From positions 1,145 to 65,144 of the IMG/VR virus record IMGVR_UViG_3300020414_001395: a DNA stretch of 64,000 nucleotides. One strand, given 5' to 3'. Both the position numbers and the translations under genes were made by a program. This document shows positions 17,363 to 64,000 of this stretch, one piece after another. Under the pieces are notes generated by a model, which was given only the letters and a program-made list of their open reading frames with translations, ran no database searches and was not told where the DNA came from. This DNA is from a virus. Its lineage: Duplodnaviria > Caudoviricetes. The first letter of the stretch is position 1. Every line of letters starts with the position of its first letter.

Positions 17363-17805
17363 TATTTTTTGGCTTTTTCAATGGTTCTTCCTGCGAAGTA
17401 TGCACCGAAAGAGGTGAGCATTAAGATCTCCAGCAAAGATACGTAACTATCTTTTACGTTAAATGGCCAACCATCCATGCTGTCTGCGACCATTGTAGCC
17501 ATAAACATGACCATTAGGCAGATCAATGTAACAGGTCTAATCAGCTTTGCAAGCTTGACATCACTACCCATGTCCGCCTTCCATCTTTCGCTTACATTGT
17601 TCTGAAACTGAACCTCTGCGTCGAGCATGGCCTTAGCTTCTGCAGGGTCAACATCAGGCTCCTTGTCTAACAGATTTTTTACCACGCCAAGGGCGCCTTG
17701 GTCTGGGAGCAGGTCCCCCACCGTATCCAGTACAGAGGGGGCCTTTTCTTTCAACCACTTGCCAAGGCCAGTGTCTTTGATTTTAGTCTTTTCTGGTTTG
17801 CTCAT
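17362..17805 (-). CDS. holin (3TM gene-transfer-release type)
   Basis: RWKADMGSD...IRPVTLI; two TM segments; YFAGRTIEKAKK basic tail. Confidence 0.7.
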   Translation of the reverse strand: MSKPEKTKIKDTGLGKWLKEKAPSVLDTVGDLLPDQGALGVVKNLLDKEPDVDPAEAKAMLDAEVQFQNNVSERWKADMGSDVKLAKLIRPVTLICLMVMFMATMVADSMDGWPFNVKDSYVSLLEILMLTSFGAYFAGRTIEKAKK

Positions 17806-20800
17806 ATCTCTTGTTGAATTTCATAACGATGCTTCTCTCTTTGTCTGCGAGCTCCTGCATCCTCTTCATTCTCTCTGTGTAGTCCTGTATCTCTAGAGCG
17901 TTTCTTCTCTGCTTTCTTAGGTTGCTCAGCTGCTTGTCGTAAATCTTCAAGACTTCAGACAAAGCGTAAACGCCCTTGTATCTGTCGGGGTCGTCCTTGC
18001 GTCTAGCTCTTTTCATTTCAGCCTTAAGCTCCATGATCTTTTGACGACGGGCCCTGTAATCCTCCACATCCATGTACTTGGATGGCTCTCCGTAAAGGAT
18101 TCTCAAGAAAGGAAGGTCGTTCGCCTCTATTTTTACTTCGTTGTCTGAAGCCTTTGCAGCAAGGCCTCTGACAGCCTCTCCCGTTCTGGTAACAAACTTG
18201 CCCGCGCCACCGATGAAGTACTCAAACAAGTACCACATCTTGTCGGGATTGAAGTCAAGGTCTCCCTTCACCTCCACAGATCCTCCAGTAGCTTCGTTCA
18301 TCCATCTGAAGAATTGCTGGACTGACTCGGGAGATCTAAACGACATTGATGACTCTGGCTGCTGCAACCCGTAAGGCAGATTCTCCTTGAATACAGGACC
18401 CCCAAAGTATGTCTCGTTGGTCATTATGTCTACGATAGGCTTAAACACCGTAGGAACCGCAGACTTACCAGCCTTCGTAAACAGGTCGCTAGATTGACCA
18501 AAGCTGATTGGAGAGAATGAGTTAATGAACGAAGACGTCAGTTGCATCATCGCTGTGTCAATCTCTTTGTGTCCAGCCCCAACTTCAACGGCACTGCTAC
18601 CCAGATTTGCAAACAAGCTGAATCCGTATGGGAGAGGGACCTTGTAGTAGTCTTTCCCGTTGGGGCGCATGATGATGAGGTTTCTTTCCTTGATGTAGTC
18701 TGGTATCTTGTTGTAGTACAACTCTCCATCTTCGTCCTCTCCAGACATCGCAAGAGACAGCATGGTCAGCATACCATTAAACACAGTAAGTGCCGCAGCC
18801 ATCTTCTGGGCGTTGTTCATGCGATCCTTAAACGCTCTCTTCGTGCCGTCTGGGTATGTTGGCTCCTTCAGCGTGAGAAGAGATCTTCCAAGCCTAGCTG
18901 TACCCTGCACAGATGCGTTGAAGAAAAGGTATACTGAGTTCAACAGCTGTCCGTACTCTCCAGACTTGTTGAAGTTTACAGTGATGTTCTTGGCAAGCTG
19001 AGCCGCCTTTTCTCTGCTAACCCCCTTCTCTCTGGCCGCGATGTAGGCCGACAGACGAATGCTGTTCTCGAATGCGTCGTTGACCCCCTCGATGGTTCTC
19101 GCAAACGCCTCTGCATTACCCAAAAGGGTCTGCATTCTTGTCTTGTCTGAAGTCTCAGACTCAAGCGCTGCGGCAATATCCGCGAGTGGCTTTGCATAGC
19201 TCCATCCAGTCTTGCCGCCGTCGTCCCTGAAGTCATTGTAGTACCTTTCAATCTCTGGGTTCTCTTTCAAGAACTTAGACAAGGCCTCAGGGGTCTCGGC
19301 CTTAACCAAAGCCTTCAGCGTCGCGGGAACCTTACGTATCATGTCTGCGACAATTGCGTCGCCTTCGATGATACCCCCTGGGATATCCGCTTCAGCCGCT
19401 GCATTAAAGATGGCTGATTGTATATCTCTTGAGAAGTTAGATATCATAAACTCTGGGTTCAGAGTTGTAAATGATCTTCTGAGCCAGTTTGATGGGGCTC
19501 TCAACATTCTTACAAAGACACTAGTCGCGGGGAGGTTCATATTCCTCAGGGTCTCAGCATAGCTGGCGTCCTTGAATCTTATGAACTTCTGCTCACCATC
19601 AACCCTCACGGATACTGAGTGTGGATCTTGAGAGGTCGCCTTAGATCCATCAACGATTCTCCATACCTTATCGTTAGGATTCTCCTTTACCAGCTCGTAC
19701 AGGGATTGCAAAGCTTCGTTTGTTCTTGCTTTGATGTGTACACTTGCGTTTTGCGCAATCACCTGAGCCAATATGTTTTCAGCCTGAGACTTACGACCTT
19801 CCGCTCTCTTTGTTGTTGGGCCAAACACAGACAGTCCAGCCCCACCCGTTGGGTAGGAAGAGGTAACCGAAGACTCCTCGTCGACAGCGATGCCAGACAA
19901 AGGCACGTAGCTATCAAACTGAGATTCAAAAGCATCAATGGCCTCCTGAGACTCAAGCCCAAACTCAACCATGGTGTCTCTTGTGTCTTGCTGTATATCC
20001 CTAACCATCTTGACTATTGCGTCAAGGGTAGATCTTTTGTCTGAAGGAATAGAGTCAATGATTGACCTAGCCTCCTCGTTTGTCATACCCGACCCGCTTT
20101 CTTCTTTTCCTTCGGTTCTCTCTTCTATGAGTGCGTTTCTTTCTGGGGCGTGAAGAGCATACAGGTAATCAGAAACCTCTTGAACAGAAACTCCACCTTC
20201 CTTCATGGCTTCCACAAGATCTTTCTGCTTATCATCAAGCTTCCTGAGATCCTCCGCAGCCTTTCCGTACATAAGCTCCTCGGCCATTTTGAAGTCCTGA
20301 GATTGATCTCTTACTCCACGGGCAGCCTCTACGTCTTCCTGCAGCTTAAATATGTCAACGTACTTGTCCTGAAGCCTTTTGATCCACTTATTTCTCCAAG
20401 TCTGGAAAGCAGTGAGATCAGAGACCTGCCAAGTGCCTTGGTCCGTTCTCACCGACTTCAGCCCTCTTACGTCTCTAATTGAGGCCTTTCCATTGACGTC
20501 CTGCACCTCTGCATTGACCTCATACTGGCTATATCTGTTAAGAGCCTCCGCCTTTGAGTATGGGTCTGATGCTCCCTCAAACTCCTTCTTTCTTTTTGTG
20601 TCTTTAGCTTTTCCTGAAATATCACCCCCGATAAAGTCTGGGTCAATCTTATCAAGAGTATACTGTTCCTTAAAAACCTCAAGAGATGTTGAATCTCCAT
20701 CGACTATTATAGCTCCAGTAAATCCATATCCAGAAAGATTCTTGACCCTCATGTTCTTGAGAACTACCTGGCCATAATTCTTAAGTATGTCTTGGTCGAT

Positions 20801-23800
20801 CTCGTATGTGAATCTTTTTCCGCCAAACAGCGTTGCGGCTTTTTGGGCTTTCAACGCTGGGTCGTTAAAGTATTCAGCAATTTGCTGATCTATCGTTCCT
20901 GACGTAGGGACGTCCCTACCCATCTCAAAGGCTTCGTGGGAGAAGTACTCCCCCATTACATCCTTGCCAAGGAAAGGCTTTCTAGCTTCGAACTGATCAG
21001 CCATCTTTGTGTGGTAGTTGATGAGTACATCAACTATTTCTTCAAACTGCTTTTGCGTCGTTACAGGAAGAACAAAGTCTGACGAAGAGAACAGTCTTGC
21101 GGTTTCTTCAGAGAGTCCTTCGAAGCCGTCGTTTTCTGCCATCCTAATCATCGTCCTCACCTTAGCTTTCGCGGCTGAAGTAAACTTATCATATATGGTG
21201 GGTCCAGAAATACCCACGTTCTTGTCTCTAGACCTTGCAATAAGGCCTCTCATCACAGCAACAAATACGTCTGGATTACCCTTTGTGGCTTTGTATGTGA
21301 GCGGAGCAAAGAGGCTTCCAAATTTGCCAGACATAGCAATGGCACTATCGGCCTTGTTCATTCTCGACCTCGCTCTCTTCTCCTCGTCCTTGAATCTTAT
21401 GTTGTTTGCCTTGTCAAAGATGGCCTGAGCTTGAGCCCTGTATCTCTCCATTCTTTTTCTTGCCATGGCGAGGTTTACGTGTGTCGAAACCACGGACTCA
21501 CCCTCTTTGAGCTCTTCAAGGTCCGCATCGTCCAAGTCCATTACAGCCCTGGGCCCAGAGGTTATACCTTTTTCTGTGTCAGGCATTGTTTTGTCGTACC
21601 CGCTAGTGGGAGAGAACAAACCCCTATAGTCCTCTAGGTTACCCTCCTGAAAATCTTTCATTTGATTTTCGGGCATCACGTAATCTGGATCCCCAAGGTC
21701 CTCCTTTTTGTACCTAATGGCGAACAGGCCAACGGTGTCTCCAGCCTCGGCGTCATCAAAAGGAACCATACCAGTGGCATTGACGAGGTCGCTGTCCTGA
21801 ACTCTGTTCAATGGAGCGTAAGCCCTAGACCTTCCACTATCATCAATTCGCTTCTCAATGTCCTCCTTGGTCAGCCCCATCTCAAGCGCTGCCTCAATAT
21901 TCTTCTTTGCTATTACTGCAATCCTGTAGTCCTGATCAGCTGTTCTTTCCATGCGCTCAGGCCCTGGGGGTTCGAACTGAAGGGCGTTGACATACCCGTT
22001 CCATGGAAGCTCTCTAAACAGCTTCCTAGACTCGTCTCTAATGTCTCTCGCTTGACGTCTTACCTCCTTTCTTTGATCTGAACGGTCAAATGCCTCTTTG
22101 CGCTTTTGCTGATTGTAGGTCAGGGGGACCTCCATGTAGACTGGATTTCCATCTCGGTCTACCTTTGGTCTCGGAGGGTTCACCTTGTACTTCTTCCCAT
22201 CCTTTATGAAATACATGTTTGCTATCCTGTCAGCCCTTTGGTTGCCAGTCTGCTTGTTGTACCAGTTTCTGAAGTGGAAGTAGTCGTTAACCTTGACTGA
22301 CTTTTGAGCTGAATACGTTGTGTATCTGCTGCTCGTCAATGGAGACTGACCAGGACCAAGGGACGGGTAGTTCGTGTAGAATATCTCTGTGTCCTTCAGG
22401 TAGTCAAAGTTTTTCTTCTGTCTAACGGACAGACGCCCCTGGAACATGTCTATACTTTCAGCGCCCTGCTCAAGCACATCTTCCTTAGGCGTTACTACAC
22501 CCTCAAAGCTGCCAAGCATGGCGTCCGCAGCTTTTGCGATACGAGCGTCAAACTCCTCTTGAGTTTCTGTTGGTCTCTTAGGTGCGACGTCGGGCTGAGC
22601 CTCTTGCTGAGGCTCCTCTTGAACCTCCTCTTGAGTTTCTTCTGCGGTGGCCGTTGCTGGCTCTGGCTCAACTGTTGTCTCCTGACCTTGAGCAGCCCTT
22701 CTGAATTTGTCCGCAAGATCAAACAGGCCTTCGTCCCCTTTGATGACGTTGCCTTTTACTCCAATGCCCTTAAACACTCGGTTAAACGCGGCTCTAATCT
22801 TGTCCTTTACAGAAAGGAACTGATCTGGGTTATTTGCGTATCTGACAAGAACAGATATGATTGACTCTTCCTGAAGGGTAGCATCGGGTCTGCCCTCATA
22901 GAACTTCTTTGTTTCTTCAAGTACGGCCTTAACTGCCTTGGCTCCTTTTGTTTTGCCTTTTGCAATCTTCTCCATCTCCCCATACAGCCGCTGTCTAGCC
23001 TCTGCGTCCTTTCCGATCACTCCCTCAAGCACTGCGTGACCAAACTCCTCAAAGGCGTCAATAGCCTCAGTGTTGTTGTTGAGGTGGATCGTATTTGTGT
23101 CCTTGTCGTAGTAACCGTATATAGCCCCCTTCTTATCCTGAAGGACTTTCATTTGAGCCTTCATCTCAGGGCTAATCGTGCCGAAAGATTCGTCAGTCTT
23201 ATGAAACTTAACCTTTGTCCCAAGCTTGTTTAGAACCCCGCCAAAGGCCTTGGTCATTTTGTTGATGGACGATGCAACAGCTATTGGTATCTGTCCAGCC
23301 CCGTCACCAACAACTTCAGTATCCTTCAAGTCCACCATCTGACCCTCGGCAACGTTGACCTCAAATACGTCCTCTGTCTCCTGCTCTACAGGCTTCTCGG
23401 TAACCTCTTCTTCGACTTGTGTCTCTGCCTCAGTCTCAGCTTCAGCTTCTGGCTCAGCCACAGTCCCAGGCTCCGTGACCTCGTCAAACAAAGACAGCTG
23501 CACAGCCTGCTGCTGCTGACCCTCTGGGGCTGCATCTGTTGCTTCAGGCACATTGTCGTGGGACTTTTTCTCTGACTCCTCTACCTTTCTAGTCTTAGCT
23601 GGCGACTTTTGCTCGCCTGCATCCTCAACCGTAGGCGGTGTCTCAACCTCTCTAGAGGTCTCCTCTTCTGCCTGTCTTTTTTCGACGGCCTGCTCCAGCT
23701 CTGCCTTTTTGTTGAGATTCTCTTCAAGTCTTTCTTCGATGGCCTGCCTCTCTTCTTGAGTGACTGGGTCTCCCGTCCAATGCTTTCCGCTCTTTAGTAT

Positions 23801-25639
23801 TTCCTGAGATCTAGCGATCTCTTGATTGTACTTGATTAGAGCTCCTTTTTCCTCTGGAGAAAAATCATCGTAAAGCTTAGCCTCCTCGTTAGTAATAACC
23901 TTGGCTGCCGCCATAGATTCAACAAGCTCCTTTTCTAGTTGTTGCTTTCTTACGGGATCTGTTTCGGACTCGTACCTCTTTCTCAGGCGAGCCATTTTTT
24001 CCATTACAACGGATCTCTGCGCCATGAACCTTGTATGACCCCTGTGAGAGGCAAGTGAGGTTACTGATATAGGACCAAATCCACCTGCCATACCAGCAAG
24101 TGCGGCATCTGCAACCTCATGGAAGTTTAGATCCCTTACGTTTCTGCCCATCATGATGTTGTCCACAGCGTCAATCGTCCAGTCCGCCACGGCCACTACA
24201 CCCTCTTCAAGGCCTTCTGCTGCCGTCCCCTTCAGTATTCTCTTGCTGAGTCCTTCGACAACCTCTCCGCTCATCTCCTTCTTGGCAGACTCTATGGCAG
24301 CCTTTCTAGATCCAGACCTCAAGCCCTGTACGGCATAGTCCGCACCAACCTTCATCTTCAAGAGAAGGGCGGCCATACCAACTTCTGCCGTGGCTCTAGC
24401 CGCAGATGTAAACGCAGCCTCAGATATGCTCATGTGAGGTGAGTAGGCTCTCGTGTTTCCGTAGCTCTCTCCAAACACATCAACAGCCATTACCGCAGGG
24501 TTCACAGCCATTTCAGCTATGGACTTCAGTCCATCAGCCATAACTCTTCCAGTCTCAAGAGACGTTGTGGCAAGGTAATCCCCGATAGAGATGTCTCCGT
24601 TCCACGCGGCCATAGTTCTTTCGGTAATCCCTTTCGAATATGCCTCCTCAGAAACGCCCAACCCCTCATAGAAAACCCTTTCTTTCTCTGAGTTTATTTG
24701 GTTGGTTTCTTTGATCTTATCCTGATAGTACTGAGAGGTAAAAGAATCTCCGTAAAGGTTTCTCATGCCGAGGCCTTCCCCATATACATCCGCTTGGAAG
24801 GCGGCCATCCCAGACACCATGTTGGAAATGCTGAGATCTCCCAAGAGAAGGCTTCCGTAGCCAACCTCTTCGTCGCGCATTCCTGGGATCTGTCGAATAA
24901 ACTCTTCAGTCTTTTGATCAAATTCCCTTTCGTCTCTCTCAGCTCTTTCTGCGGACTCCCTGAGGAACAAACCAAAGTCTGACTCACTGTTTATGTCGTA
25001 CTCAAGGTCAATACCAAGAGACTTGTTCATTTCGTTTGCTTTGCTCAAGGCCAGCTGATAGCTGTTCTTACCAAAGCCAATCATTTCGTTGCCAGCCTCT
25101 TGTATCTTGGCCAGGGTCTCTTGATCGTACTCTTCTTCAATGCTGAACTCGGGCAGCAAGTTGTTTCTTTGCGCCTCCTGCAAAGCCTTTGTTATGGCCT
25201 TGGGGTCATTAAAGTTGACAGCTCTTACCAGATTGTTTCCAAGCCTGCTGTTCATAACCCCGTTCATTGCCAGCTCGTCGTTCTGACGAATCTGAAAAAG
25301 ACGAGGATCAGCTATCGACTCTTGGGATCCAAGTGATTGGGGATCGGAATCCAAGGACTCCCCACTTAGTACGGATGGAGAATCTTTTTTTTTTAAGCCA
25401 TCATACGCCTCCCTCTGCTGCCTGAAGAGTTCGTCTCTTCTTTCTTTCTCCTGAAGAAATGCTTGACGCTCCTCTTCATGCCTCCGAATAAACTCGTTGG
25501 AAACGTCGGCAGGGTTGTACCCCACATACGACATGATCTCGACGATTCTGTTTGAATCGTATCCCTTCCTCTGAAGTGCATCAATTCCTTCCCCAACAGG
25601 TATTTGATTGTTGGTAGGTGTAGTAGAATCTCCGTTCAT
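17783..25639 (-). CDS. large polyvalent / internal virion (ejection) protein, 2618 aa, with C-terminal LPD38-like region
   Basis: NPEFMISNFSRD, AKNITVNFNKSG, LFFNASVQG, KVPLPYGF; zincin-like AFEEFGHAVL near residue 870; position after tail genes. Confidence 0.75.
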   Translation of the reverse strand: MNGDSTTPTNNQIPVGEGIDALQRKGYDSNRIVEIMSYVGYNPADVSNEFIRRHEEERQAFLQEKERRDELFRQQREAYDGLKKKDSPSVLSGESLDSDPQSLGSQESIADPRLFQIRQNDELAMNGVMNSRLGNNLVRAVNFNDPKAITKALQEAQRNNLLPEFSIEEEYDQETLAKIQEAGNEMIGFGKNSYQLALSKANEMNKSLGIDLEYDINSESDFGLFLRESAERAERDEREFDQKTEEFIRQIPGMRDEEVGYGSLLLGDLSISNMVSGMAAFQADVYGEGLGMRNLYGDSFTSQYYQDKIKETNQINSEKERVFYEGLGVSEEAYSKGITERTMAAWNGDISIGDYLATTSLETGRVMADGLKSIAEMAVNPAVMAVDVFGESYGNTRAYSPHMSISEAAFTSAARATAEVGMAALLLKMKVGADYAVQGLRSGSRKAAIESAKKEMSGEVVEGLSKRILKGTAAEGLEEGVVAVADWTIDAVDNIMMGRNVRDLNFHEVADAALAGMAGGFGPISVTSLASHRGHTRFMAQRSVVMEKMARLRKRYESETDPVRKQQLEKELVESMAAAKVITNEEAKLYDDFSPEEKGALIKYNQEIARSQEILKSGKHWTGDPVTQEERQAIEERLEENLNKKAELEQAVEKRQAEEETSREVETPPTVEDAGEQKSPAKTRKVEESEKKSHDNVPEATDAAPEGQQQQAVQLSLFDEVTEPGTVAEPEAEAETEAETQVEEEVTEKPVEQETEDVFEVNVAEGQMVDLKDTEVVGDGAGQIPIAVASSINKMTKAFGGVLNKLGTKVKFHKTDESFGTISPEMKAQMKVLQDKKGAIYGYYDKDTNTIHLNNNTEAIDAFEEFGHAVLEGVIGKDAEARQRLYGEMEKIAKGKTKGAKAVKAVLEETKKFYEGRPDATLQEESIISVLVRYANNPDQFLSVKDKIRAAFNRVFKGIGVKGNVIKGDEGLFDLADKFRRAAQGQETTVEPEPATATAEETQEEVQEEPQQEAQPDVAPKRPTETQEEFDARIAKAADAMLGSFEGVVTPKEDVLEQGAESIDMFQGRLSVRQKKNFDYLKDTEIFYTNYPSLGPGQSPLTSSRYTTYSAQKSVKVNDYFHFRNWYNKQTGNQRADRIANMYFIKDGKKYKVNPPRPKVDRDGNPVYMEVPLTYNQQKRKEAFDRSDQRKEVRRQARDIRDESRKLFRELPWNGYVNALQFEPPGPERMERTADQDYRIAVIAKKNIEAALEMGLTKEDIEKRIDDSGRSRAYAPLNRVQDSDLVNATGMVPFDDAEAGDTVGLFAIRYKKEDLGDPDYVMPENQMKDFQEGNLEDYRGLFSPTSGYDKTMPDTEKGITSGPRAVMDLDDADLEELKEGESVVSTHVNLAMARKRMERYRAQAQAIFDKANNIRFKDEEKRARSRMNKADSAIAMSGKFGSLFAPLTYKATKGNPDVFVAVMRGLIARSRDKNVGISGPTIYDKFTSAAKAKVRTMIRMAENDGFEGLSEETARLFSSSDFVLPVTTQKQFEEIVDVLINYHTKMADQFEARKPFLGKDVMGEYFSHEAFEMGRDVPTSGTIDQQIAEYFNDPALKAQKAATLFGGKRFTYEIDQDILKNYGQVVLKNMRVKNLSGYGFTGAIIVDGDSTSLEVFKEQYTLDKIDPDFIGGDISGKAKDTKRKKEFEGASDPYSKAEALNRYSQYEVNAEVQDVNGKASIRDVRGLKSVRTDQGTWQVSDLTAFQTWRNKWIKRLQDKYVDIFKLQEDVEAARGVRDQSQDFKMAEELMYGKAAEDLRKLDDKQKDLVEAMKEGGVSVQEVSDYLYALHAPERNALIEERTEGKEESGSGMTNEEARSIIDSIPSDKRSTLDAIVKMVRDIQQDTRDTMVEFGLESQEAIDAFESQFDSYVPLSGIAVDEESSVTSSYPTGGAGLSVFGPTTKRAEGRKSQAENILAQVIAQNASVHIKARTNEALQSLYELVKENPNDKVWRIVDGSKATSQDPHSVSVRVDGEQKFIRFKDASYAETLRNMNLPATSVFVRMLRAPSNWLRRSFTTLNPEFMISNFSRDIQSAIFNAAAEADIPGGIIEGDAIVADMIRKVPATLKALVKAETPEALSKFLKENPEIERYYNDFRDDGGKTGWSYAKPLADIAAALESETSDKTRMQTLLGNAEAFARTIEGVNDAFENSIRLSAYIAAREKGVSREKAAQLAKNITVNFNKSGEYGQLLNSVYLFFNASVQGTARLGRSLLTLKEPTYPDGTKRAFKDRMNNAQKMAAALTVFNGMLTMLSLAMSGEDEDGELYYNKIPDYIKERNLIIMRPNGKDYYKVPLPYGFSLFANLGSSAVEVGAGHKEIDTAMMQLTSSFINSFSPISFGQSSDLFTKAGKSAVPTVFKPIVDIMTNETYFGGPVFKENLPYGLQQPESSMSFRSPESVQQFFRWMNEATGGSVEVKGDLDFNPDKMWYLFEYFIGGAGKFVTRTGEAVRGLAAKASDNEVKIEANDLPFLRILYGEPSKYMDVEDYRARRQKIMELKAEMKRARRKDDPDRYKGVYALSEVLKIYDKQLSNLRKQRRNALEIQDYTERMKRMQELADKERSIVMKFNKRYEQTRKD

Positions 25640-53719: not shown

Positions 53720-53793
53720 TACGCCCGCCAGGATTCGAACCTGGGACCGTCTGCTTAGAAGGCAGATGCTCTATCCAACTGAGCTACGAGCGC
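53720..53793 (-). tRNA. trnR-UCU: tRNA-Arg(UCU)
   Basis: GCGCTCG/CGGGCGT acceptor, GCTC/GAGC D-stem, TCTGC-CTTCTAA-GCAGA, TTCGAAT T-loop; CCA not encoded. Confidence 0.95.
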
Positions 53794-54047: not shown

Positions 54048-54121
54048 TTGGGGCGGCGGGACTTGAACCCGCGACTTCCTGTGTATAAGACAGACGCTCT
54101 AACCAACTGAACTACGCCCCA
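54048..54121 (-). tRNA. trnI-UAU: tRNA-Ile(UAU)
   Basis: TGGGGCG/CGCCCCA acceptor, A73, TCTGT-CTTATAC-ACAGG anticodon arm (TAT at 54085-54087), GCGGG-TTCAAGT-CCCGC; CCA not encoded. Confidence 0.88.
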
Positions 54122-59065: not shown

Positions 59066-59841
59066 TATCTAGGGAGTCTAGCTCCGAGCATCGCTCTAAG
59101 CATTTTGAAGTCTTCAGCTGTGATCTTACCGTCGTTGTTCTTATCAAGCTTCTTCTGCCCTCCGACAAGACCACCCTTCTTAAGCAGCTTCATCTTGCCA
59201 CCATACTTAAATGGAAGGTTTCCGTACTGAGCGAGGTTGGCAGCCAGGTTAGGCCCTGTTGCCTCTGCATCGTAATCAAAGTTATCGTCAGGTGCAGCGT
59301 CAAACTCATCAATGGCTCCGAGCTCCATGTCATCAATAGACAGGTTTGGAGCACCGTAAGCATCAGATCCTGGGGTCTCCCCCATCCCCTTAAAGAAACC
59401 TGCTTCACCAAGAGCCTGTTGAACCTTTCTGGCTTTCTGAGCCTTCCCCAACAAGCCTTTCAACCCTCCCTTTCCTGCAGCCTTTAATGCGCCACCCTTA
59501 AGGGCTCCACCTTTAATGGCTGAGAGGGCAGCAGGCCCTCCAAATGCCAAGCCAGCAGCCAAAGCACCAGCAGCTATGCCTTTCTTTGCTCTGTCTTTCT
59601 GTACGTTTCTGAGGTAATCGAGTCTGTCAGCGCTCTGAGGTCCGTACTCATTGAGTCTACCTTCTCTTTCGAGCTTCTTGAGATATCTCTTCTCTTGTCT
59701 GAGTGCGCTACCCTTGGTATTGAAAAGGCCTCTATTGGCGAAAGCCATGTTGATGCCCCTGCCAGCGCCCTCCATATCTGAGTACTTGGCTTGAGAGTTT
59801 CCGAAGAAGCCCCCGCGCTTATAATTCTTGGTTACTTGCAT
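59065..59841 (-). CDS. G/A/K-rich protein with C-terminal EF-hand
   Basis: LDKNNDGKITAEDF; first gene of late arm. Confidence 0.65.
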   Translation of the reverse strand: MQVTKNYKRGGFFGNSQAKYSDMEGAGRGINMAFANRGLFNTKGSALRQEKRYLKKLEREGRLNEYGPQSADRLDYLRNVQKDRAKKGIAAGALAAGLAFGGPAALSAIKGGALKGGALKAAGKGGLKGLLGKAQKARKVQQALGEAGFFKGMGETPGSDAYGAPNLSIDDMELGAIDEFDAAPDDNFDYDAEATGPNLAANLAQYGNLPFKYGGKMKLLKKGGLVGGQKKLDKNNDGKITAEDFKMLRAMLGARLPR

Positions 59842-59846
59842 GAGTG

Positions 59847-59854
59847 CAAATATA
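59847..59854 (-). promoter_or_regulatory. late-type promoter -7 element TATATTTG
   Basis: 5 nt before ATG 59841. Confidence 0.6.
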
Positions 59855-60006
59855 ACCAGACTTTTTTTACTGACTTAGCCCGATCATAGGCCACATTTAC
59901 AGCTAAAACACTACTACCCTCGCGCCATAAAGAATAAGGATTCATCTGCGTACACGCAAAAAACCATCTTTGGGTGCTTTCTTTCATCTGAATCGCTTTG
60001 ATTCCG

Positions 60007-60037
60007 TAAAGGTATAAAGGAAAATTTGAAAAGTCAA
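60007..60037 (-). promoter_or_regulatory. Bacteroidota-type promoter pointing into the late arm
   Basis: TTGAC-N18-TACCTTTA; aligns position-for-position with the promoter at 8340. Confidence 0.5.
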
Positions 60038-60192
60038 TAGTCTAGCAACGCTTTAAGGCAAGGCCTCTAAGTTGCTGTAAGCGAAAGGGTTAGAGTTTTT
60101 CGTGTGAATTTGTTTCTGAAGGCAATAACCCAAGATCACGCTGAAAAAAGAGGGGAGTAACATTTACCGTGGGGATTATATATATCTATGAG

Positions 60193-60605
60193 CGTTAGGT
60201 CCGAAGGACCTAAACGGATTTCCAGACCCCACCCCCTCAAACTACTTCGTAGTTTGCGCATACATTTCAGCTTTTGCTCTACCTACTGACTTACAGTCAG
60301 TTAGGTAGCCTCAGCTCTAGCCACCGTTGAGGACCGCAGGATGGGACGTGCAGTCCAGCAGGGTGGGACAATCCCTCCCCAACCTCTCTAACCGACTTAC
60401 CCCTTCCCCTTATAGGGGAAACATTGACTCCGATTTGGTCGGCCTTCGCGATGGCTAACCTACGGATACAACTTGTTGTATCTCAGCGCGTTAGCAGCTT
60501 TCACTTCCACTACTACTACCCTTGGTAGTGTAGTGAGGACACTGAGGGTAGAGATATGTATTAGAATGAAAGAAACCTTTAGGTTTCATTCTAATACATT
60601 ATCTC
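60193..60605. other. non-coding cluster of six short inverted repeats plus one 24-bp stem at the strand switch (candidate terminus/origin/early control region)
   Basis: Stems at 60195-60213, 60238-60256, 60279-60308, 60404-60420, 60465-60482, 60508-60535, 60551-60605. Confidence 0.8.
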
Positions 60606-60612
60606 ATAAACC

Positions 60613-61176
60613 ATGGAAAGCTTCAACTTCTCCGATTGCCGTAAGGCAACCAACCAAGCCATCTTCCGTCCAACTGCGGCCCGCAAAGCTGCTGCAGCGA
60701 AGCTGCTGCAGGAGGCCTTGGACTTCATCAACAACCTCGAAGAGGTTGCCGAAAAGCCTTCGAAGAAGGCTGGCAAGAAGCGTCGTCGTAAGACGACGAA
60801 GAGAACACCTTCACAGAAGGTGGCAGATGCTCAAGACCGAGCCGCTCTCAAGACCAACGAAGTTGGTCCCATCAAGCCTTCGAAGAAGGCTAAGACAGCT
60901 TCCGTCAAGGAAGCTGCTGCCGCCGCTAAAGCGGTCAGCGTGGCCACGGGAGCCGCTGCTAAAGCAGCGAAGAAAGCTCAGCTGAAAGCTGAGGCTGAGG
61001 CCACTGAAGCTAAAGCTTCAAAGGTGGCTTCGAAGAAGCCAACTCAAGCCCAACGTTTGTCCTCTTTGGAGGACAAGATTGAGATGCTGACCAACCTCCT
61101 CGCCTTGCAGATGCAGGGTGAGCAGGGCACAAGCGTTGATGCTGTAAGCATCGAGGAACTCCCCTTCGAACTCTAA
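60613..61176 (+). CDS. Lys/Ala-rich histone H1-like protein, first early gene
   Basis: KPSKKA twice, KKRRRK, AAAAAKAV, AAKAAKKA; C-terminal helix and acidic IEELPFEL. Confidence 0.75.
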   Translation: MESFNFSDCRKATNQAIFRPTAARKAAAAKLLQEALDFINNLEEVAEKPSKKAGKKRRRKTTKRTPSQKVADAQDRAALKTNEVGPIKPSKKAKTASVKEAAAAAKAVSVATGAAAKAAKKAQLKAEAEATEAKASKVASKKPTQAQRLSSLEDKIEMLTNLLALQMQGEQGTSVDAVSIEELPFEL

Positions 61177-61186
61177 TTCATCGAAG

Positions 61187-61276
61187 ATGGACATCAACAT
61201 CATCCTTTACGCCGTGTGCCTTCCGCTCGCAATCGTGACGCTCGCCCTGCTTTGGGTCGATGCCAACTACGACTAA
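61187..61276 (+). CDS. 29-aa single-TM peptide
   Basis: MDINIILYAVCLPLAIVTLALLWVDANYD. Confidence 0.5.
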   Translation: MDINIILYAVCLPLAIVTLALLWVDANYD

Positions 61277-61282
61277 ACCCTT

Positions 61283-61346
61283 AGAGAGTCTTAGTATATA
61301 TACTCTCTCTGAACGTAGTGAAGAGAGTATATATACAAGACACTCT
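61283..61346. repeat. early intergenic hairpin repeat, copy 2
   Basis: 15-bp core 61294-61308/61322-61336; outer AGAGAGTCTT/AAGACACTCT. Confidence 0.95.
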
Positions 61347-61378
61347 TGAAACCTTTTTCAAACTTCAATTCAATCACC

Positions 61379-61525
61379 ATGCAGACATTTGCAGCTACCC
61401 GCCGTCAGCTTATCGCTGACCTCCTCGACCTCCACCTCTCCTTCGACGCAGTGCGTGCCACCGCTGAGTGGGACGAACTCACCTGCCTTGAGCAAATGAC
61501 CTTGGAGGACTTGATTGAGATGTAA
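61379..61525 (+). CDS. 48-aa hypothetical early protein
   Basis: MQTFAATRRQLIADLL...; CAAACTTCAATTCAATCACC leader. Confidence 0.6.
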   Translation: MQTFAATRRQLIADLLDLHLSFDAVRATAEWDELTCLEQMTLEDLIEM

Positions 61526-61533
61526 TCTCAAAT

Positions 61534-61591
61534 CTCAGGTACACTGACGAGCCTTGAGTAGGCGAAACACCACGAAAGTGGTGTCTGTATC
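61534..61591 (+). ncRNA. type I hammerhead ribozyme
   Basis: Stem I GGTACA/TGTATC; core CTGACGA; stem II GCCT-TGAGT-AGGC; GAAA; stem III ACACCAC-GAAA-GTGGTGT; GTC cleavage triplet (cut after 61585); loop II TGAG complementary to upstream CTCA. Confidence 0.92.
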
Positions 61592-61610
61592 AAACTTCAA
61601 TTCATCTACG

Positions 61611-62024
61611 ATGGACTATCAAAATCTCATGCTTCTGCGCTACATGAACGTGCAAAGCGGCAACGGATTCTCCGTTGACAAAGACCTCGACGGCTACAGC
61701 CCCGTGGTGGAGGCGTATGCAGTAGGCGGCGCGACTGAATCGGTTGAGATGATTGACAACAACTTGTTGTCATTCAACACCTTCCGAGAAATCATGGAAC
61801 TCAAGATTGAGTTCATCGAGAACACCGAACGTTACTTCCGTAACGTGGACCCCATCGGCAAGTACCAACAGGTAATCGGTGCTTGGGTGAACGACGACAA
61901 CTACGTCTACATCGAGGTCTCCGACATCGTGTTCGACCGCGAAGAGGCCATCGCCTTGGGTAAGGAGCGCGAAGAGGAGGCCATTTGGGACTTCAAGAAC
62001 AACTGCGAAATCAAACTCACATGA
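61611..62024 (+). CDS. hypothetical early protein (MDYQNLMLL)
   Basis: Start reassigned to ATG 61611; the track start 61554 lies inside the ribozyme. Confidence 0.7.
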   Translation: MDYQNLMLLRYMNVQSGNGFSVDKDLDGYSPVVEAYAVGGATESVEMIDNNLLSFNTFREIMELKIEFIENTERYFRNVDPIGKYQQVIGAWVNDDNYVYIEVSDIVFDREEAIALGKEREEEAIWDFKNNCEIKLT

Positions 62025-62248
62025 ACGTATGGGAACGCTACCCCAAGCGGGGCACGGCGAGCGATTGGCTCCCCAAGTCGGTACCAACCGACGAGTACCG
62101 AATGGTCTACTACTACGGCTTCGACCGAGACGACTGGAATGCGCTCACGTTCAAGGCGTGGTCACTCGACCATGCCAAGCAACGGGCACTCGACCTTGTG
62201 CCCGACGGACACAAAATCAAGTCTGTGAAACCTGTTGACAATCAGTAA
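62021..62248 (+). CDS. hypothetical early protein (MNVWERYP)
   Basis: ATGA overlap. Confidence 0.6.
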   Translation: MNVWERYPKRGTASDWLPKSVPTDEYRMVYYYGFDRDDWNALTFKAWSLDHAKQRALDLVPDGHKIKSVKPVDNQ

Positions 62249-62263
62249 CTTAAACCCTTTCAC

Positions 62264-62347
62264 ATGAACAAACGAATGAACCTAGCGTTCCTCGCGTTCC
62301 TTGCATGGATGGCCACGCTTTTGGTGGTGGCTCTCCTCCAATCCTAA
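62264..62347 (+). CDS. 27-aa single-TM peptide
   Basis: MNKRMNLAFLAFLAWMATLLVVALLQS. Confidence 0.5.
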   Translation: MNKRMNLAFLAFLAWMATLLVVALLQS

Positions 62348-62410
62348 GAGAGTGTTAGTATATATACTCTCTCTGAACGTAGTGAAGAGAGTATATATAC
62401 AACACCTCTC
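62348..62410. repeat. early intergenic hairpin repeat, copy 3
   Basis: 15-bp core 62358-62372/62386-62400; outer GAGAGTGTT/AACACCTCTC. Confidence 0.95.
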
Positions 62411-62435
62411 AATGTCAAACTTCAAATCCAATCTT

Positions 62436-62684
62436 ATGGACAACTTCTTCAAACGCCCCGTCGGAGCGGCGGTGCTCTACCTCAACGACTTCCACTTCGG
62501 CAAGAACCTCGCTGTGCTCAACCGAGCGGCTCGACTTGTGCCCAAGGACGTCAAGGGCTTTGCCTCCCTGCTCTCGGACACACCGAATGCAGACCCTGAC
62601 CACGTTCAGGACATCATCAACCTGCTCGACGACTACGCCAACGACGTAGACAACGACCTCATCTTCAACCTCAACAAGTCATGA
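62436..62684 (+). CDS. hypothetical early protein (MDNFFKRP; alternative in-frame ATG 62412)
   Basis: Follows CAAACTTCAA leader. Confidence 0.65.
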   Translation: MDNFFKRPVGAAVLYLNDFHFGKNLAVLNRAARLVPKDVKGFASLLSDTPNADPDHVQDIINLLDDYANDVDNDLIFNLNKS

Positions 62685-62992
62685 AATTCACACACTCCTT
62701 CAAACACACACTCCCCTTCGTATCAATGCGGACAGCCTACGACGTAGACCTCGATGCCGAGAAGAATGTGGAGATGGACACCTCGGTGTCGGTTGACCCT
62801 AACCACCAATATGGTGGTTGGTACGAAACCTACGACCTCGAAACAGGTGGTGACCGCTTCTATGCAGAGGGTGTACTCGAAGTGTACTTCGACGAAGATG
62901 GTCCACGGCTCACGGGCTACGATGGATGCTTTGAACTCCCTGAATACATCACCGATGCCCTCGAAGAGAAGGGCGTAATCATTGACCTATGA
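62681..62992 (+). CDS. hypothetical acidic early protein
   Basis: GWYETYD...YAEGVLE...LTGYDGCFELP. Confidence 0.65.
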   Translation: MKFTHSFKHTLPFVSMRTAYDVDLDAEKNVEMDTSVSVDPNHQYGGWYETYDLETGGDRFYAEGVLEVYFDEDGPRLTGYDGCFELPEYITDALEEKGVIIDL

Positions 62993-63144
62993 GAGAACTC
63001 ATTGCAAAGAATCAAATCAACAAGGACTGCCCCACCTGCAAGGGTGAGGGCTATGTCCTGACTGCGGTGTACTCACACCCAACCATCCCTGATGGGACGG
63101 AGCGTTACGAAGTATGCGACGAATGCAAACACAACAAGACATGA
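62989..63144 (+). CDS. 51-aa zinc-finger protein
   Basis: CPTCKGEG...CDEC. Confidence 0.55.
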   Translation: MRELIAKNQINKDCPTCKGEGYVLTAVYSHPTIPDGTERYEVCDECKHNKT

Positions 63145-63341
63145 CACAAGAACAATGCGAATCAGCAGTCAAGGCACTGCAAGAGTGCGGGTTCACCGCA
63201 TCCCATGTGATGGGCGCACCTGACGACCACGGCGTGTGGCTGGACGAGGTGTGGAACGACGAACTACAGGAAACACACAGCTTCCGCATCCATGACGAAG
63301 AAATCGAATGGTGGGGAGTAACCAACTCATTGAAGACATGA
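63141..63341 (+). CDS. hypothetical early protein (MTQEQCES)
   Basis: ATGA overlaps at both ends. Confidence 0.6.
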   Translation: MTQEQCESAVKALQECGFTASHVMGAPDDHGVWLDEVWNDELQETHSFRIHDEEIEWWGVTNSLKT

Positions 63342-63484
63342 CACAACACGAACGACTTTCCCTCCGACAGACCCACTGCGGTAGCTTTGAACGTGCGCTC
63401 ATCGAGGCGTGGTTCAAGGCAGACATGGGCAACAAGAAGACTCTCGAAGAGGCCTTCAAGAACACCAACTTCGACCTTACTTAG
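63338..63484 (+). CDS. 48-aa hypothetical early protein
   Basis: GSFERALIEAWFKADMGN; stop abuts hairpin copy 4. Confidence 0.6.
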   Translation: MTQHERLSLRQTHCGSFERALIEAWFKADMGNKKTLEEAFKNTNFDLT

Positions 63485-63544
63485 AGAGTGTTAGTATATA
63501 TCTCTCTCTGAACGTAGTGAAGAGAGATATATACAACACCTCTC
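63484..63544. repeat. early intergenic hairpin repeat, copy 4 (compensated 1-bp deletion)
   Basis: GTATATATCTCTCT(63494-63507)-CTGAACGTAGTGA-AGAGAGATATATAC(63521-63534). Confidence 0.95.
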
Positions 63545-63576
63545 AACAACATTGTCAAACTTCAAACTCCAAACCA

Positions 63577-63840
63577 ATGGACAACATCAAAGACATGACG
63601 AACGACGAGTTCGTCAGCCACCTCATGACGGGGTACAACAAGCACGGGGCACTCGTGCAAATGGTAGTCCTCGACTGCCTTCAGCGTGGTCTTGACCACT
63701 ACATCTCAGCCAAGGACGAAATCCTTGAGGATGAGCGCAAGCGCCGTGAGAACGGAGGCGGTATCTCCCTCATCAACATGGAGGCATGGGTCTCATGTTG
63801 TGAGGAAACACAACAACGAATCCAAGACAAGTACTCATGA
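63577..63840 (+). CDS. hypothetical early protein (MDNIKDMTN)
   Basis: Follows CAAACTTCAA leader. Confidence 0.65.
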   Translation: MDNIKDMTNDEFVSHLMTGYNKHGALVQMVVLDCLQRGLDHYISAKDEILEDERKRRENGGGISLINMEAWVSCCEETQQRIQDKYS

Positions 63841-64000
63841 TGCAACCACATACATGCCACAAGTGCGGAGGCGAAGGCATCTGCCTCGGCACCCAAGAGG
63901 TTGGGTACTCTACAAACCAAAACTACCTGATTCTGCACGACTTCGAGTGTGATAATTGCGAAGCAACGTGGGACGTAACATTTGAATTAACACCAACAGA
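63837..64000 (+). CDS. zinc-finger protein, 3'-truncated
   Basis: CHKCGGEG...CDNC; runs off the window end. Confidence 0.55.
   Translation, partial: MMQPHTCHKCGGEGICLGTQEVGYSTNQNYLILHDFECDNCEATWDVTFELTPT

Follow-up and report, generated by a model that had tools for sequence, protein, structure and literature searches.

Small early genes of a tailed phage, carried in a 64,000-nt stretch of DNA (the window; bases 1145-65144 of the 65,144-bp IMG/VR virus record IMGVR_UViG_3300020414_001395, rated complete), are organized as repeated cassettes in which a structured boundary element, an 11-nt leader (UCAAACUUCAA), 10-11 G-poor bases, and an AUG precede one to five small open reading frames (ORFs) whose stops and starts overlap. 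One of these boundary elements is a genuine hammerhead ribozyme, which we infer to be self-cleaving, and the others in the window are long palindromic hairpins. In related phages both kinds of element are found in the same slot before the same leader, and cassettes appear to have been lost by recombination between the repeats. The explanation that we favor, with confidence a little short of even, is that the hairpins are palindromes akin to repetitive extragenic palindromic (REP) elements that have become fixed at cistron boundaries, where they would delimit message units alongside the ribozyme and also serve as recombination points.

One leader behind two kinds of boundary element

The window contains five exact copies of CAAACTTCAA, all of them in plus-strand orientation (421, 61359, 61591, 62416, and 63556), against a chance expectation of ~0.1 copies for a random 10-mer in 64 kb, and each stands 10 nt (11 nt at 63556) before an ATG (441, 61379, 61611, 62436, and 63577). 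The original prediction had proposed that five early genes share one upstream architecture with an identical leader at 441 and 61379, and both claims are borne out, the identity of that pair extending over the 26 nt of TTCAAACTTCAATTCAATCACCATGC at 419 and 61357. Four of the leaders follow a 24-25-bp hairpin and one follows the hammerhead, as had also been claimed and as coordinates and folds confirm. A sixth hairpin-leader-ATG module lies at record bases 20-108, within the 1,144 bases preceding the window. The segments from leader to start codon come out unstructured in RNA folding, with the leader unpaired in the minimum-energy fold.

The type I hammerhead occupies positions 61538-61591 of the plus strand (GGUACA-CUGACGA-GCCU(UGAGU)AGGC-GAA-ACACCAC(GAAA)GUGGUGU-C-UGUAUC), with self-cleavage predicted between C61585 and U61586. 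It has the type I core, namely CUGACGA...GAA, the A15.1-U16.1 pair, and a C at position 17 (H17, not G), and its last pair does take in the first C of the leader, as had been noted earlier, with G61538 pairing to C61591. Scanning related viral contigs with the structure taken into account turned up another 28 copies, and across the 26 distinct copies that we aligned the core is invariant except at N7 (C or U). Pairing holds in 98.9% of cells of the three helices, and both sides have changed in 9 of the 17 pairs; none of 500 shuffles matched the observed covariation score, and slid controls were at most 54% paired. The open, 6-bp stem I has a conserved G·U pair, which points to selection at the level of RNA, and its 3' strand leads into the exact UCAAACUUCAA in 24 of the 26 copies, the other two having variant leaders. 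Rfam returned a single weak match, to RAGATH-1-hammerhead (20.4 bits, E 3.3), which does not reach the gathering score of 56.3 because the stems are short and family-specific parts are missing.

Six nucleotides before stem I, a small 7-bp hairpin (UUGAGAU-GUA-AUCUCAA, 61515-61531, plus strand) contains the upstream TAA stop codon, and in relatives a stop-codon hairpin 2-6 nt ahead of stem I covaries (TTGATAT/ATATCAA, TTGACAT/ATGTCAA, and TGGATAT/ATATCCA). Hammerhead-headed modules, both at 61600-61613 of the window and in relatives, also carry a conserved box, CAUCUACG or CAUCUCCG, directly before the AUG; this box can fold into a small hairpin that takes in the start codon, and it is not present in hairpin-headed modules. 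One relative, L016, has a hammerhead with an insertion of ~110 nt in stem III (L016:10983-11143), and after it a tRNA-like element (L016:11184-11279) whose anticodon arm carries a 32-nt insert and which stands ~10 nt ahead of the leader. This element is near-threshold (Rfam tRNA 28.3 bits, gathering score 29); the early regions of 24 relatives have no tRNAs. That one hammerhead might cut the hairpin modules in trans was considered and rejected, as no sites matching its arms lie beside the leaders and the number of matches equals that expected by chance.

The cassettes themselves, all on the plus strand, vary in length. The leader UUCAAACUUCAA (419-443) is followed after 10 nt by the ATG at 441 of a gene at 441-668 (MLQDMNTRQ...), and the leader at 61357-61368 heads a 48-aa gene at 61379-61525 (MQTFAATRRQLIADLL...), the unit spanning 61357-61525. 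The hammerhead-headed cassette (61590-62347) consists of a leader at 61590-61600 and genes at 61611-62024, 62021-62248, and 62264-62347. The five-gene cassette that we call D (62414-63484) has its leader at 62414-62425 and genes at 62436-62684, 62681-62992, 62989-63144, 63141-63341, and 63338-63484, joined by ATGA overlaps. In the last unit of the window (63554-63840), the leader at 63554-63565 and 11 nt precede a gene at 63577-63840 (MDNIKDMTNDEF...), of which a paralogous or variant copy stands at the record start.

The plus-strand ORF at 60-348, ahead of the first of these cassettes, has a repeated C-terminal motif (VVFESQPPF / LVWWFDSTLCYH) whose DNA mimics a tRNA T-arm and CCA end, and in some relatives the matching ORF stops after the first motif, with the leader directly next. 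Candidate tRNA-like elements at 100-347 were therefore set aside: the GGTTCGACTCCACC...ACCA sequences that resemble one belong to the 3' coding end of this ORF, and ARAGORN and Rfam find no tRNA there.

Interchange and loss of cassettes in related phages

If the cassettes are modular, relatives should differ in which element heads a gene, and in which genes lie between the repeats. Searching with a 19-mer from the apex of the hairpin brought up 53 viral loci, of which roughly half belong to relatives of this phage. Among these relatives, 48 leaders stand behind the main hairpin and 26 behind a hammerhead, and still others come after hairpins with different apices (CTTCATTTATGAAG, CTGAATTTATGAAG, and CTGAGTTTACGAAG). 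We clustered the first gene after each leader into families. The family of the gene at 61611 (MKHHDLM) has a hammerhead upstream in 17 of 21 relatives, and that of the gene at 61379 (RRQLIADLL) has the main hairpin in 14 and another hairpin in four. The MDNIKDM family (window start 63577) has the main hairpin in 13 and no element in one, and the MDNFF family (window start 62436) has the main hairpin in 12, another hairpin in two, and a hammerhead in two (L058 and L064). At least seven gene families have a hammerhead in front, and at least eight have the main hairpin, so that the unit of element and leader is reused ahead of many unrelated small genes.

Since hairpin and hammerhead both head MDNFF genes, these comparisons support the view that the boundary elements are interchangeable, mostly travelling with their gene. 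They also supply the loci at which, as the original prediction had suggested looking for, hairpin and ribozyme replace each other. Deletions bounded by the repeats, which it had likewise proposed to look for, occur as well. L016 is without the entire five-gene D cassette, and a D-type hairpin with its spacer is fused to the gene that in the window follows the next hairpin (E); L027 and L037 show the same loss and the same junction. This junction is the signature of a crossover within the hairpin-leader repeat, and it bears out the suggestion that direct repeats could let modules be deleted or shuffled. Repeat-mediated cassette shuffling is thus supported.

Palindromes at stop codons

The four hairpins of the window share an identical 25-nt core, CTCTCTCTGAACGTAGTGAAGAGAG (366, 61303, 62367, and 63502), on near-perfect stems of 24-25 bp with one bulge and (TA)n-rich arms. 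They fold as RNA at -27.8 to -30.6 kcal/mol, with z scores of -5.8 to -7.1, and their bases touch or overlap the upstream stop codon. All are on the plus strand. Copy B (348-409; -27.8 kcal/mol, z -5.8) abuts the TAG stop at 346-348; copy C (61283-61346; -29.8 kcal/mol, z -5.8) has the lower stem GAGAGUCUU/AAGACACUCU; copy D (62348-62410; -30.6 kcal/mol, z -7.1) overlaps the TAA stop at 62345-62347; and copy E (63484-63544; -29.5 kcal/mol, z -5.9) overlaps the TAG stop at 63482-63484 and is one A-T pair shorter than the other copies, by a paired deletion. The record as a whole has five copies, all in the same orientation and heading early cassettes. Rfam has no family for the hairpin, giving chance microRNA-like hairpin matches only. 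In a strand test based on G·U pairs the sense stems were nearly devoid of such pairs, and the apparent antisense ones proved to be register shifts in CT/AG tracts.

Each slot has a stem of its own. Relatives carry orthologous copies of hairpin C with the same slot-specific stem, and more generally such stems are kept in orthologous positions across many relatives with compensatory changes, which indicates a long-lived constraint rather than recent insertion. Some relatives keep the E gene without hairpin E (joint of 63309 to 63584).

An apex found far beyond this phage

The tip of the hairpin, CUGA-AC-GUA-GU-GAAG, consists of tandem G·A pairs with a C-GNA-G triloop stacked on top of them and is invariant in all copies. 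Its 15-mer, CTGAACGTAGTGAAG, occurs at more than 115 viral loci, and a 17-mer containing it occurs at more than 120 bacterial genome loci from many phyla. Apex variants keep CUGA, a covarying 2-3-bp helix (AC/GU, GC/GC, or GU/AC), mostly a G-N-A triloop, and GAAG; the variants GCGTAGC, GCGAAGC, and GCGCAGC match the published GCGNAGC motif exactly, and the main apex reads A-C-GTA-G-T. Unrelated phages, several of which use Shine-Dalgarno sites, carry this apex too, there on long covarying stems whose sequence differs widely; across the viral loci the stems range from 7 to 30 bp. At L168, L227 (three copies), L191, L024, L026, and L018, genes running in the same direction flank the apex, and downstream of it come a CA-rich leader, a ribosome-binding site, and an ATG.

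A second setting is inside genes for replisome organisers, at L014, L032, L044, L139-L142, L152, L156, L157, L160, L163, L173, and other loci (for example L139:4065-4931, minus strand), where the apex is antisense to the mRNA. Replisome-organiser N-domains (Phage_rep_org_N, DUF1376, and Lin1244_N) were found in six of the ten apex ORFs tested. The reading frame through the apex is always SSLRSE or PSLRSG, five to seven flanking pairs covary, and the region codes for a linker beside short tandem repeats. Such an apex could mark an origin lying within the gene for the initiator, an arrangement known from lambda, or it could equally be a palindrome inserted in frame into an acidic linker, like the palindromic elements of Rickettsia.

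In bacteria, including marine Flavobacteriaceae, the unit is TGTCATT-CTGAACGTAGTGAAG-AATC, often with an inverted partner, in the manner of REP doublets forming hairpins (REPINs) or miniature inverted-repeat transposable elements (MITEs). At least 31 of 115 units have such a partner 19-82 nt away, and each arm of the paired units retains its own covarying mini-hairpin. These loci (L235-L354, e.g. L253:5540-5620) come from Bacteroidota, Ignavibacteria, Clostridia, Planctomycetota, Chloroflexi, Nitrospina, and cyanobacteria. A variant in which an apex A-U pair is replaced by G-C, CTGAGCGTAGCGAAG, occurs with pairing flanks in viral contigs L098, L107, L111, and L112, and the 36-nt consensus of the Bpu element of Cycas and Ginkgo mitochondria, as Chaw et al. 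(2008) are quoted in PMC8297867, contains CTGAGCGTAGCGAAG in a hairpin.

Judged by these occurrences, the apex is not specific to phages; it forms the head of a palindromic DNA element of cosmopolitan distribution, similar to REPs, REPINs, and MITEs. The copies in our record are of REP type in that they form a multi-copy palindrome with a conserved motif, intergenic and behind stop codons (five copies). It could then be asked whether the hairpins are purely selfish palindromic insertions, the leader being simply the family's standard early translation start region and the gap after the stop codon merely tolerating insertions. This account would explain why the leader occurs without a structured element upstream, why hairpin presence differs among relatives, and why the apex is found in frame in disordered organiser linkers (SSLRSE/PSLRSG), like Rickettsia palindromic elements, and in REPIN-like paired units of bacteria including marine Flavobacteriaceae. 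We nonetheless think it improbable, given the compensatory changes that keep slot-specific stem variants at orthologous positions, the invariance of the apex in all copies, and the clear selection on the hammerheads that use the same slot.

The mini-hairpin DNA class GCGNAGC/C-GNA-G is reported from G4 and St-1 primase sites, RSF1010 ssiA, and N4 early promoter hairpins (PMC13037366), and the membership of our apex in the C-GNA-G class raises the alternative that the hairpins act as DNA, extruded as cruciform or hairpin start signals in the way of N4-type early promoters or of primase and origin signals. Were they promoters, hairpin and hammerhead could replace each other for the reason that each generates a fresh 5' end immediately ahead of the leader. 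The arms are rich in (TA)n and contain Watson-Crick pairs only, all five copies point in the same direction at the heads of early cassettes, and the apex lies in the organiser-gene linkers of ~20 unrelated phages, where lambda-type origins are situated. Nor was a host-type -7 box found in the early region, as opposed to the ten copies of TATATTTG, the Bacteroidota -7 promoter box, on the minus strand (10732, 25753, 35923, 42307, 43196, 46449, 51268, 54032, 55336, and 59847), several of which stand directly ahead of gene starts, the one at 59847 adjoining the ATG at 59841.

Other evidence makes a DNA signal of this kind doubtful, and to about the same degree as the selfish account. Pfam, PHROGs, sequence searches of the PDB, and annotated phage homologues gave no evidence of a phage RNA polymerase, detection by sequence being weak; the 2618-aa and 1754-aa proteins have no solved-structure sequence match, belong to PHROG families without known function, and have Vibrio and Stx phage homologues annotated as hypothetical. 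With stems of 7-30 bp, the loop would not lie at a constant distance from the start site; the slot also accommodates other apices; and a promoter peculiar to phages is incompatible with an apex that recurs in repeats of many bacterial phyla and in plant mitochondria. The tandem repeats of organiser genes, for their part, may merely encode low-complexity acidic linkers. An N4-like promoter reading of the hairpins is accordingly possible but unsupported.

How the boundaries might work

We return to the reading that we tentatively prefer, in which REP-like palindromes and the ribozyme both delimit message units, by different chemistry. The hammerhead would cut itself after C61585, so that the downstream message gains a 5'-OH end five bases before the leader and the upstream piece ends in a folded ribozyme. 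The palindrome, transcribed inside the operon, would behave like REP elements or the RNase III hairpins of the T7 early region, blocking 3' exonucleases for the upstream unit and perhaps offering a target to a double-strand RNase. The hairpin-plus-leader repeats of ~80 nt would in addition act as crossover points at which cassettes are lost, gained, or re-headed, and the phage does encode recombination-type genes, namely a RecE/ExoVIII-type exonuclease and a resolvase-like endonuclease. Transcription through the hairpins, cutting or protection there, and hammerhead self-cleavage are steps that we infer. A boundary role at the RNA level is spoken for by the sharing of the slot with a ribozyme and a tRNA-like element, by the tolerance of different hairpins, and by the kept stems.

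Several observations weigh against this reading. The hairpin stems of the family hold a single G·U among 992 pairs, while the neighbouring hammerheads keep one, and the few stem mismatches are A·C, not G·U, on the sense strand; the near-absence of G·U fits a DNA-level or two-strand constraint better than a constraint on the sense RNA, and is suggestive of the former without being decisive. According to PMC13037366, the stability of the mini-hairpin apex is much greater in DNA than in RNA, and in replisome-organiser genes (~20 loci, ORFs of 250-375 aa) it is without exception antisense to the mRNA. Leaders in relatives also sit straight after a stop codon with no structured element upstream. 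The type of element is mostly inherited with its gene, and the swap from hairpin to hammerhead is confined to L058 and L064, maybe as one event. A search of the plus strand from 59,850 to 63,381 gave no host-type TAnnTTTG box. Public RNA runs yielded only Logan contigs of relatives (85-95% identity), which carry no end information; these contigs span the hairpin and an uncut hammerhead, possibly through DNA carry-over, and break inside palindromes, as assemblers do.

The original prediction had gone further, taking all five elements for RNA-cutting sites. For the hammerhead, covariation supports a genuine ribozyme, which would cut itself; for the hairpins the proposal sits poorly with a cosmopolitan apex of DNA type and with the G·U count. 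In its strict form, every hairpin would be cut by host RNase III or by an apex-recognising nuclease, equivalent to the hammerhead, and all units would begin with the standard leader. The near-perfect stems with one bulge reach, in RNA folds, the duplex length of about 20 bp or more that is typical of RNase III sites, should transcription pass through them. A self-cleaving ribozyme uses this slot as well, as does a tRNA-like element in L016, and because hairpins with other apices fill it too, duplex may outweigh sequence. In the Shine-Dalgarno phages L168, L227, and L191 the apex likewise stands between co-directional genes before a leader and an ATG. Precedents for RNA cutting at hairpins exist in the early RNase III sites of T7 and in Correia elements. 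Against cutting at every hairpin stand the scarcity of G·U pairs, the occurrence of the apex antisense in coding DNA and in bacterial repeat ends, outside mRNA leaders, the fact that RNase III does not need a conserved apex, and the relatives that retain the E gene without its hairpin. On balance we consider it rather unlikely.

A broader conjecture, to which we give slightly less credence still, is that the 15-nt apex, generalized as CUGA-NN-GNA-NN-GAAG, is a hitherto undescribed, universally recognised fold module that makes any long palindrome into a boundary signal for some conserved factor of the host, be it a nuclease, a primase, or a transposase. In phages it would serve as a protein-dependent counterpart of the self-cleaving ribozyme, punctuating early operons, and the same module would underlie bacterial REPIN-like repeats, in-frame organiser-gene insertions, and the Bpu elements of gymnosperm mitochondria.

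Genomic context

The minus strand carries the terminase, portal, and structural genes, and the plus strand carries small genes, a BT4734-type primase-helicase, a RecE/ExoVIII-like exonuclease, and a resolvase-like endonuclease. Protein relatives in Maribacter, Cellulophaga, and Flavobacterium phages point to a host among marine Bacteroidota, as do the recurrent TATATTTG boxes and a CHU_C type IX secretion domain. The closest relative by protein is Maribacter phage Panino, whose primase-helicase is 33% identical, and no DNA similarity to GenBank phages was found.

The early block of the plus strand begins past a gene-free, hairpin-rich stretch of 760 bp (59,850-60,610), exits at the window end, and resumes at the record start. 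This gene-free region (59850-60612), crowded with inverted repeats, lies between the divergent arms, and a different 20-bp hairpin (60545-60600) closes it 10 nt ahead of the first early ATG (60613); in relatives, the gene at 60613 is headed by a two-hairpin element and the leader. Scans for sigma-70 promoters and terminators gave sigma-70-like matches on the minus strand only, within palindrome arms, and no U-tract terminators after the hairpins.

Record bases 1-510 (L001) and window positions 63470-64000 are ~80% identical across ~500 bp. The stretch repeated at the two record ends comprises hairpin E, the leader, the MDNIKDM/MENIKDM gene, and the gene that follows, and reflects either a tandem duplicated cassette or an assembly joining two strains.

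A 2,618-aa protein is encoded at 17783-25639 on the minus strand and has an LPD38 'polyvalent protein' domain. Its last 900 residues show ~32% identity to giant hypothetical proteins of Vibrio phages, with weaker matches in Stx-converting, Ralstonia, and Bacillus phage records, and its first 1,700 residues have no detectable relatives. Two tRNA genes lie among the late-strand genes (53720-53793 and 54048-54121, minus strand); in relatives, ARAGORN calls tRNA-Arg (tct) and tRNA-Ile (tat).

Comparison with known systems

The original prediction had held that a cassette mixing ribozymes and hairpins had not been described. The mixed architecture does appear to be new: as far as our searches reached, we did not find it, the fixed leader, or the shared apex in the literature, and searches on bacterial repeat ends and mixed hammerhead/hairpin cassettes gave nothing relevant except the Bpu match. 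Hammerhead processing and repeat shuffling, on the other hand, have been published (PMC3088659, PMC2839356).

Clustered hammerheads flank genes in prophages and phages, in the haloviruses HF1 and HF2 one lies 13 nt before an early start codon, and a 5' end has been mapped at a halovirus hammerhead (Perreault et al. 2011, PMC3088659). Like the hammerhead described here, those phage hammerheads are intergenic, sit among co-directional small genes a few bases before a start codon, and have been proposed to split a long transcript. Unlike them, ours is a type I hammerhead with a 6-bp stem I, is fused to an 11-nt leader, shares its slot with palindromic hairpins, reaches no Rfam gathering score, and belongs to a phage whose host phylum does not rely on Shine-Dalgarno sites. 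The role of hammerheads in phages has been a proposal since 2011, and this family, in which a single slot before a fixed leader can hold a ribozyme, either of two kinds of hairpin, or a tRNA-like element, offers a natural experiment that could reveal whether ribozymes and hairpins are functional equivalents. The leader itself, G-poor, fixed, and early-only, is a candidate handle on the translation and shut-off of early genes in a phylum without reliance on Shine-Dalgarno sites.

The stem-loops known as PeSLs (promoter early stem-loops) of T4-type phages (PMC2839356, PMC4122927) are likewise short repeated units of stem-loop and regulatory sequence; they lie between small, functionally uncharacterized early genes and border indels and replacements between relatives. 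A PeSL combines a terminator with a sigma-70 early promoter, whereas here there is no host-type promoter motif and no U-tract; the conserved part after our hairpin is the leader of a translated region, and ribozymes alternate with the hairpins. With REP elements and bacterial interspersed mosaic elements (BIMEs), REPINs, Correia elements, and enterobacterial repetitive intergenic consensus (ERIC) sequences, the phage hairpins share the form of multi-copy imperfect palindromes just behind stop codons inside operons. REP-type elements act as mRNA 3' barriers or as targets of RNase III and RNase E. Unlike REPs and REPINs, the phage copies are single hairpins with long slot-specific stems, and no REP-associated tyrosine transposase (RAYT) or other transposase turned up, though no transposase search was made.

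In concept, the cassettes recall the RNase III sites of T7 and the tRNA punctuation of mitochondrial transcripts, in which structures between cistrons define mature ends, as they may here. T7 RNase III sites have internal loops and no conserved apex. The early promoter of N4 is a hairpin of 5-7 bp with a 3-nt purine-centred loop used by a virion RNA polymerase; our hairpins have the triloop, on stems of 24-25 bp. As for mini-hairpin DNA (GCGNAGC; Hirao review PMC13037366; PMC3201870), the core C-GUA-G and its variants fit the motif, and the difference is that here the triloop rests on tandem G·A pairs in a fixed 15-mer capping stems of 7-30 bp. The Bpu element, in the account given in PMC8297867, has CTGAGCGTAGCGAAG flanked by pairing arms, identical to the apex variant of the viral contigs, through homology or convergence; unlike the phage hairpins, it is described there from plant mitochondrial DNA, in ~500 copies with AAGG terminal direct repeats. 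A 15-nt apex common letter for letter to phages, many bacterial phyla, and a plant mitochondrial repeat points to a very widespread, possibly mobile, palindromic element.

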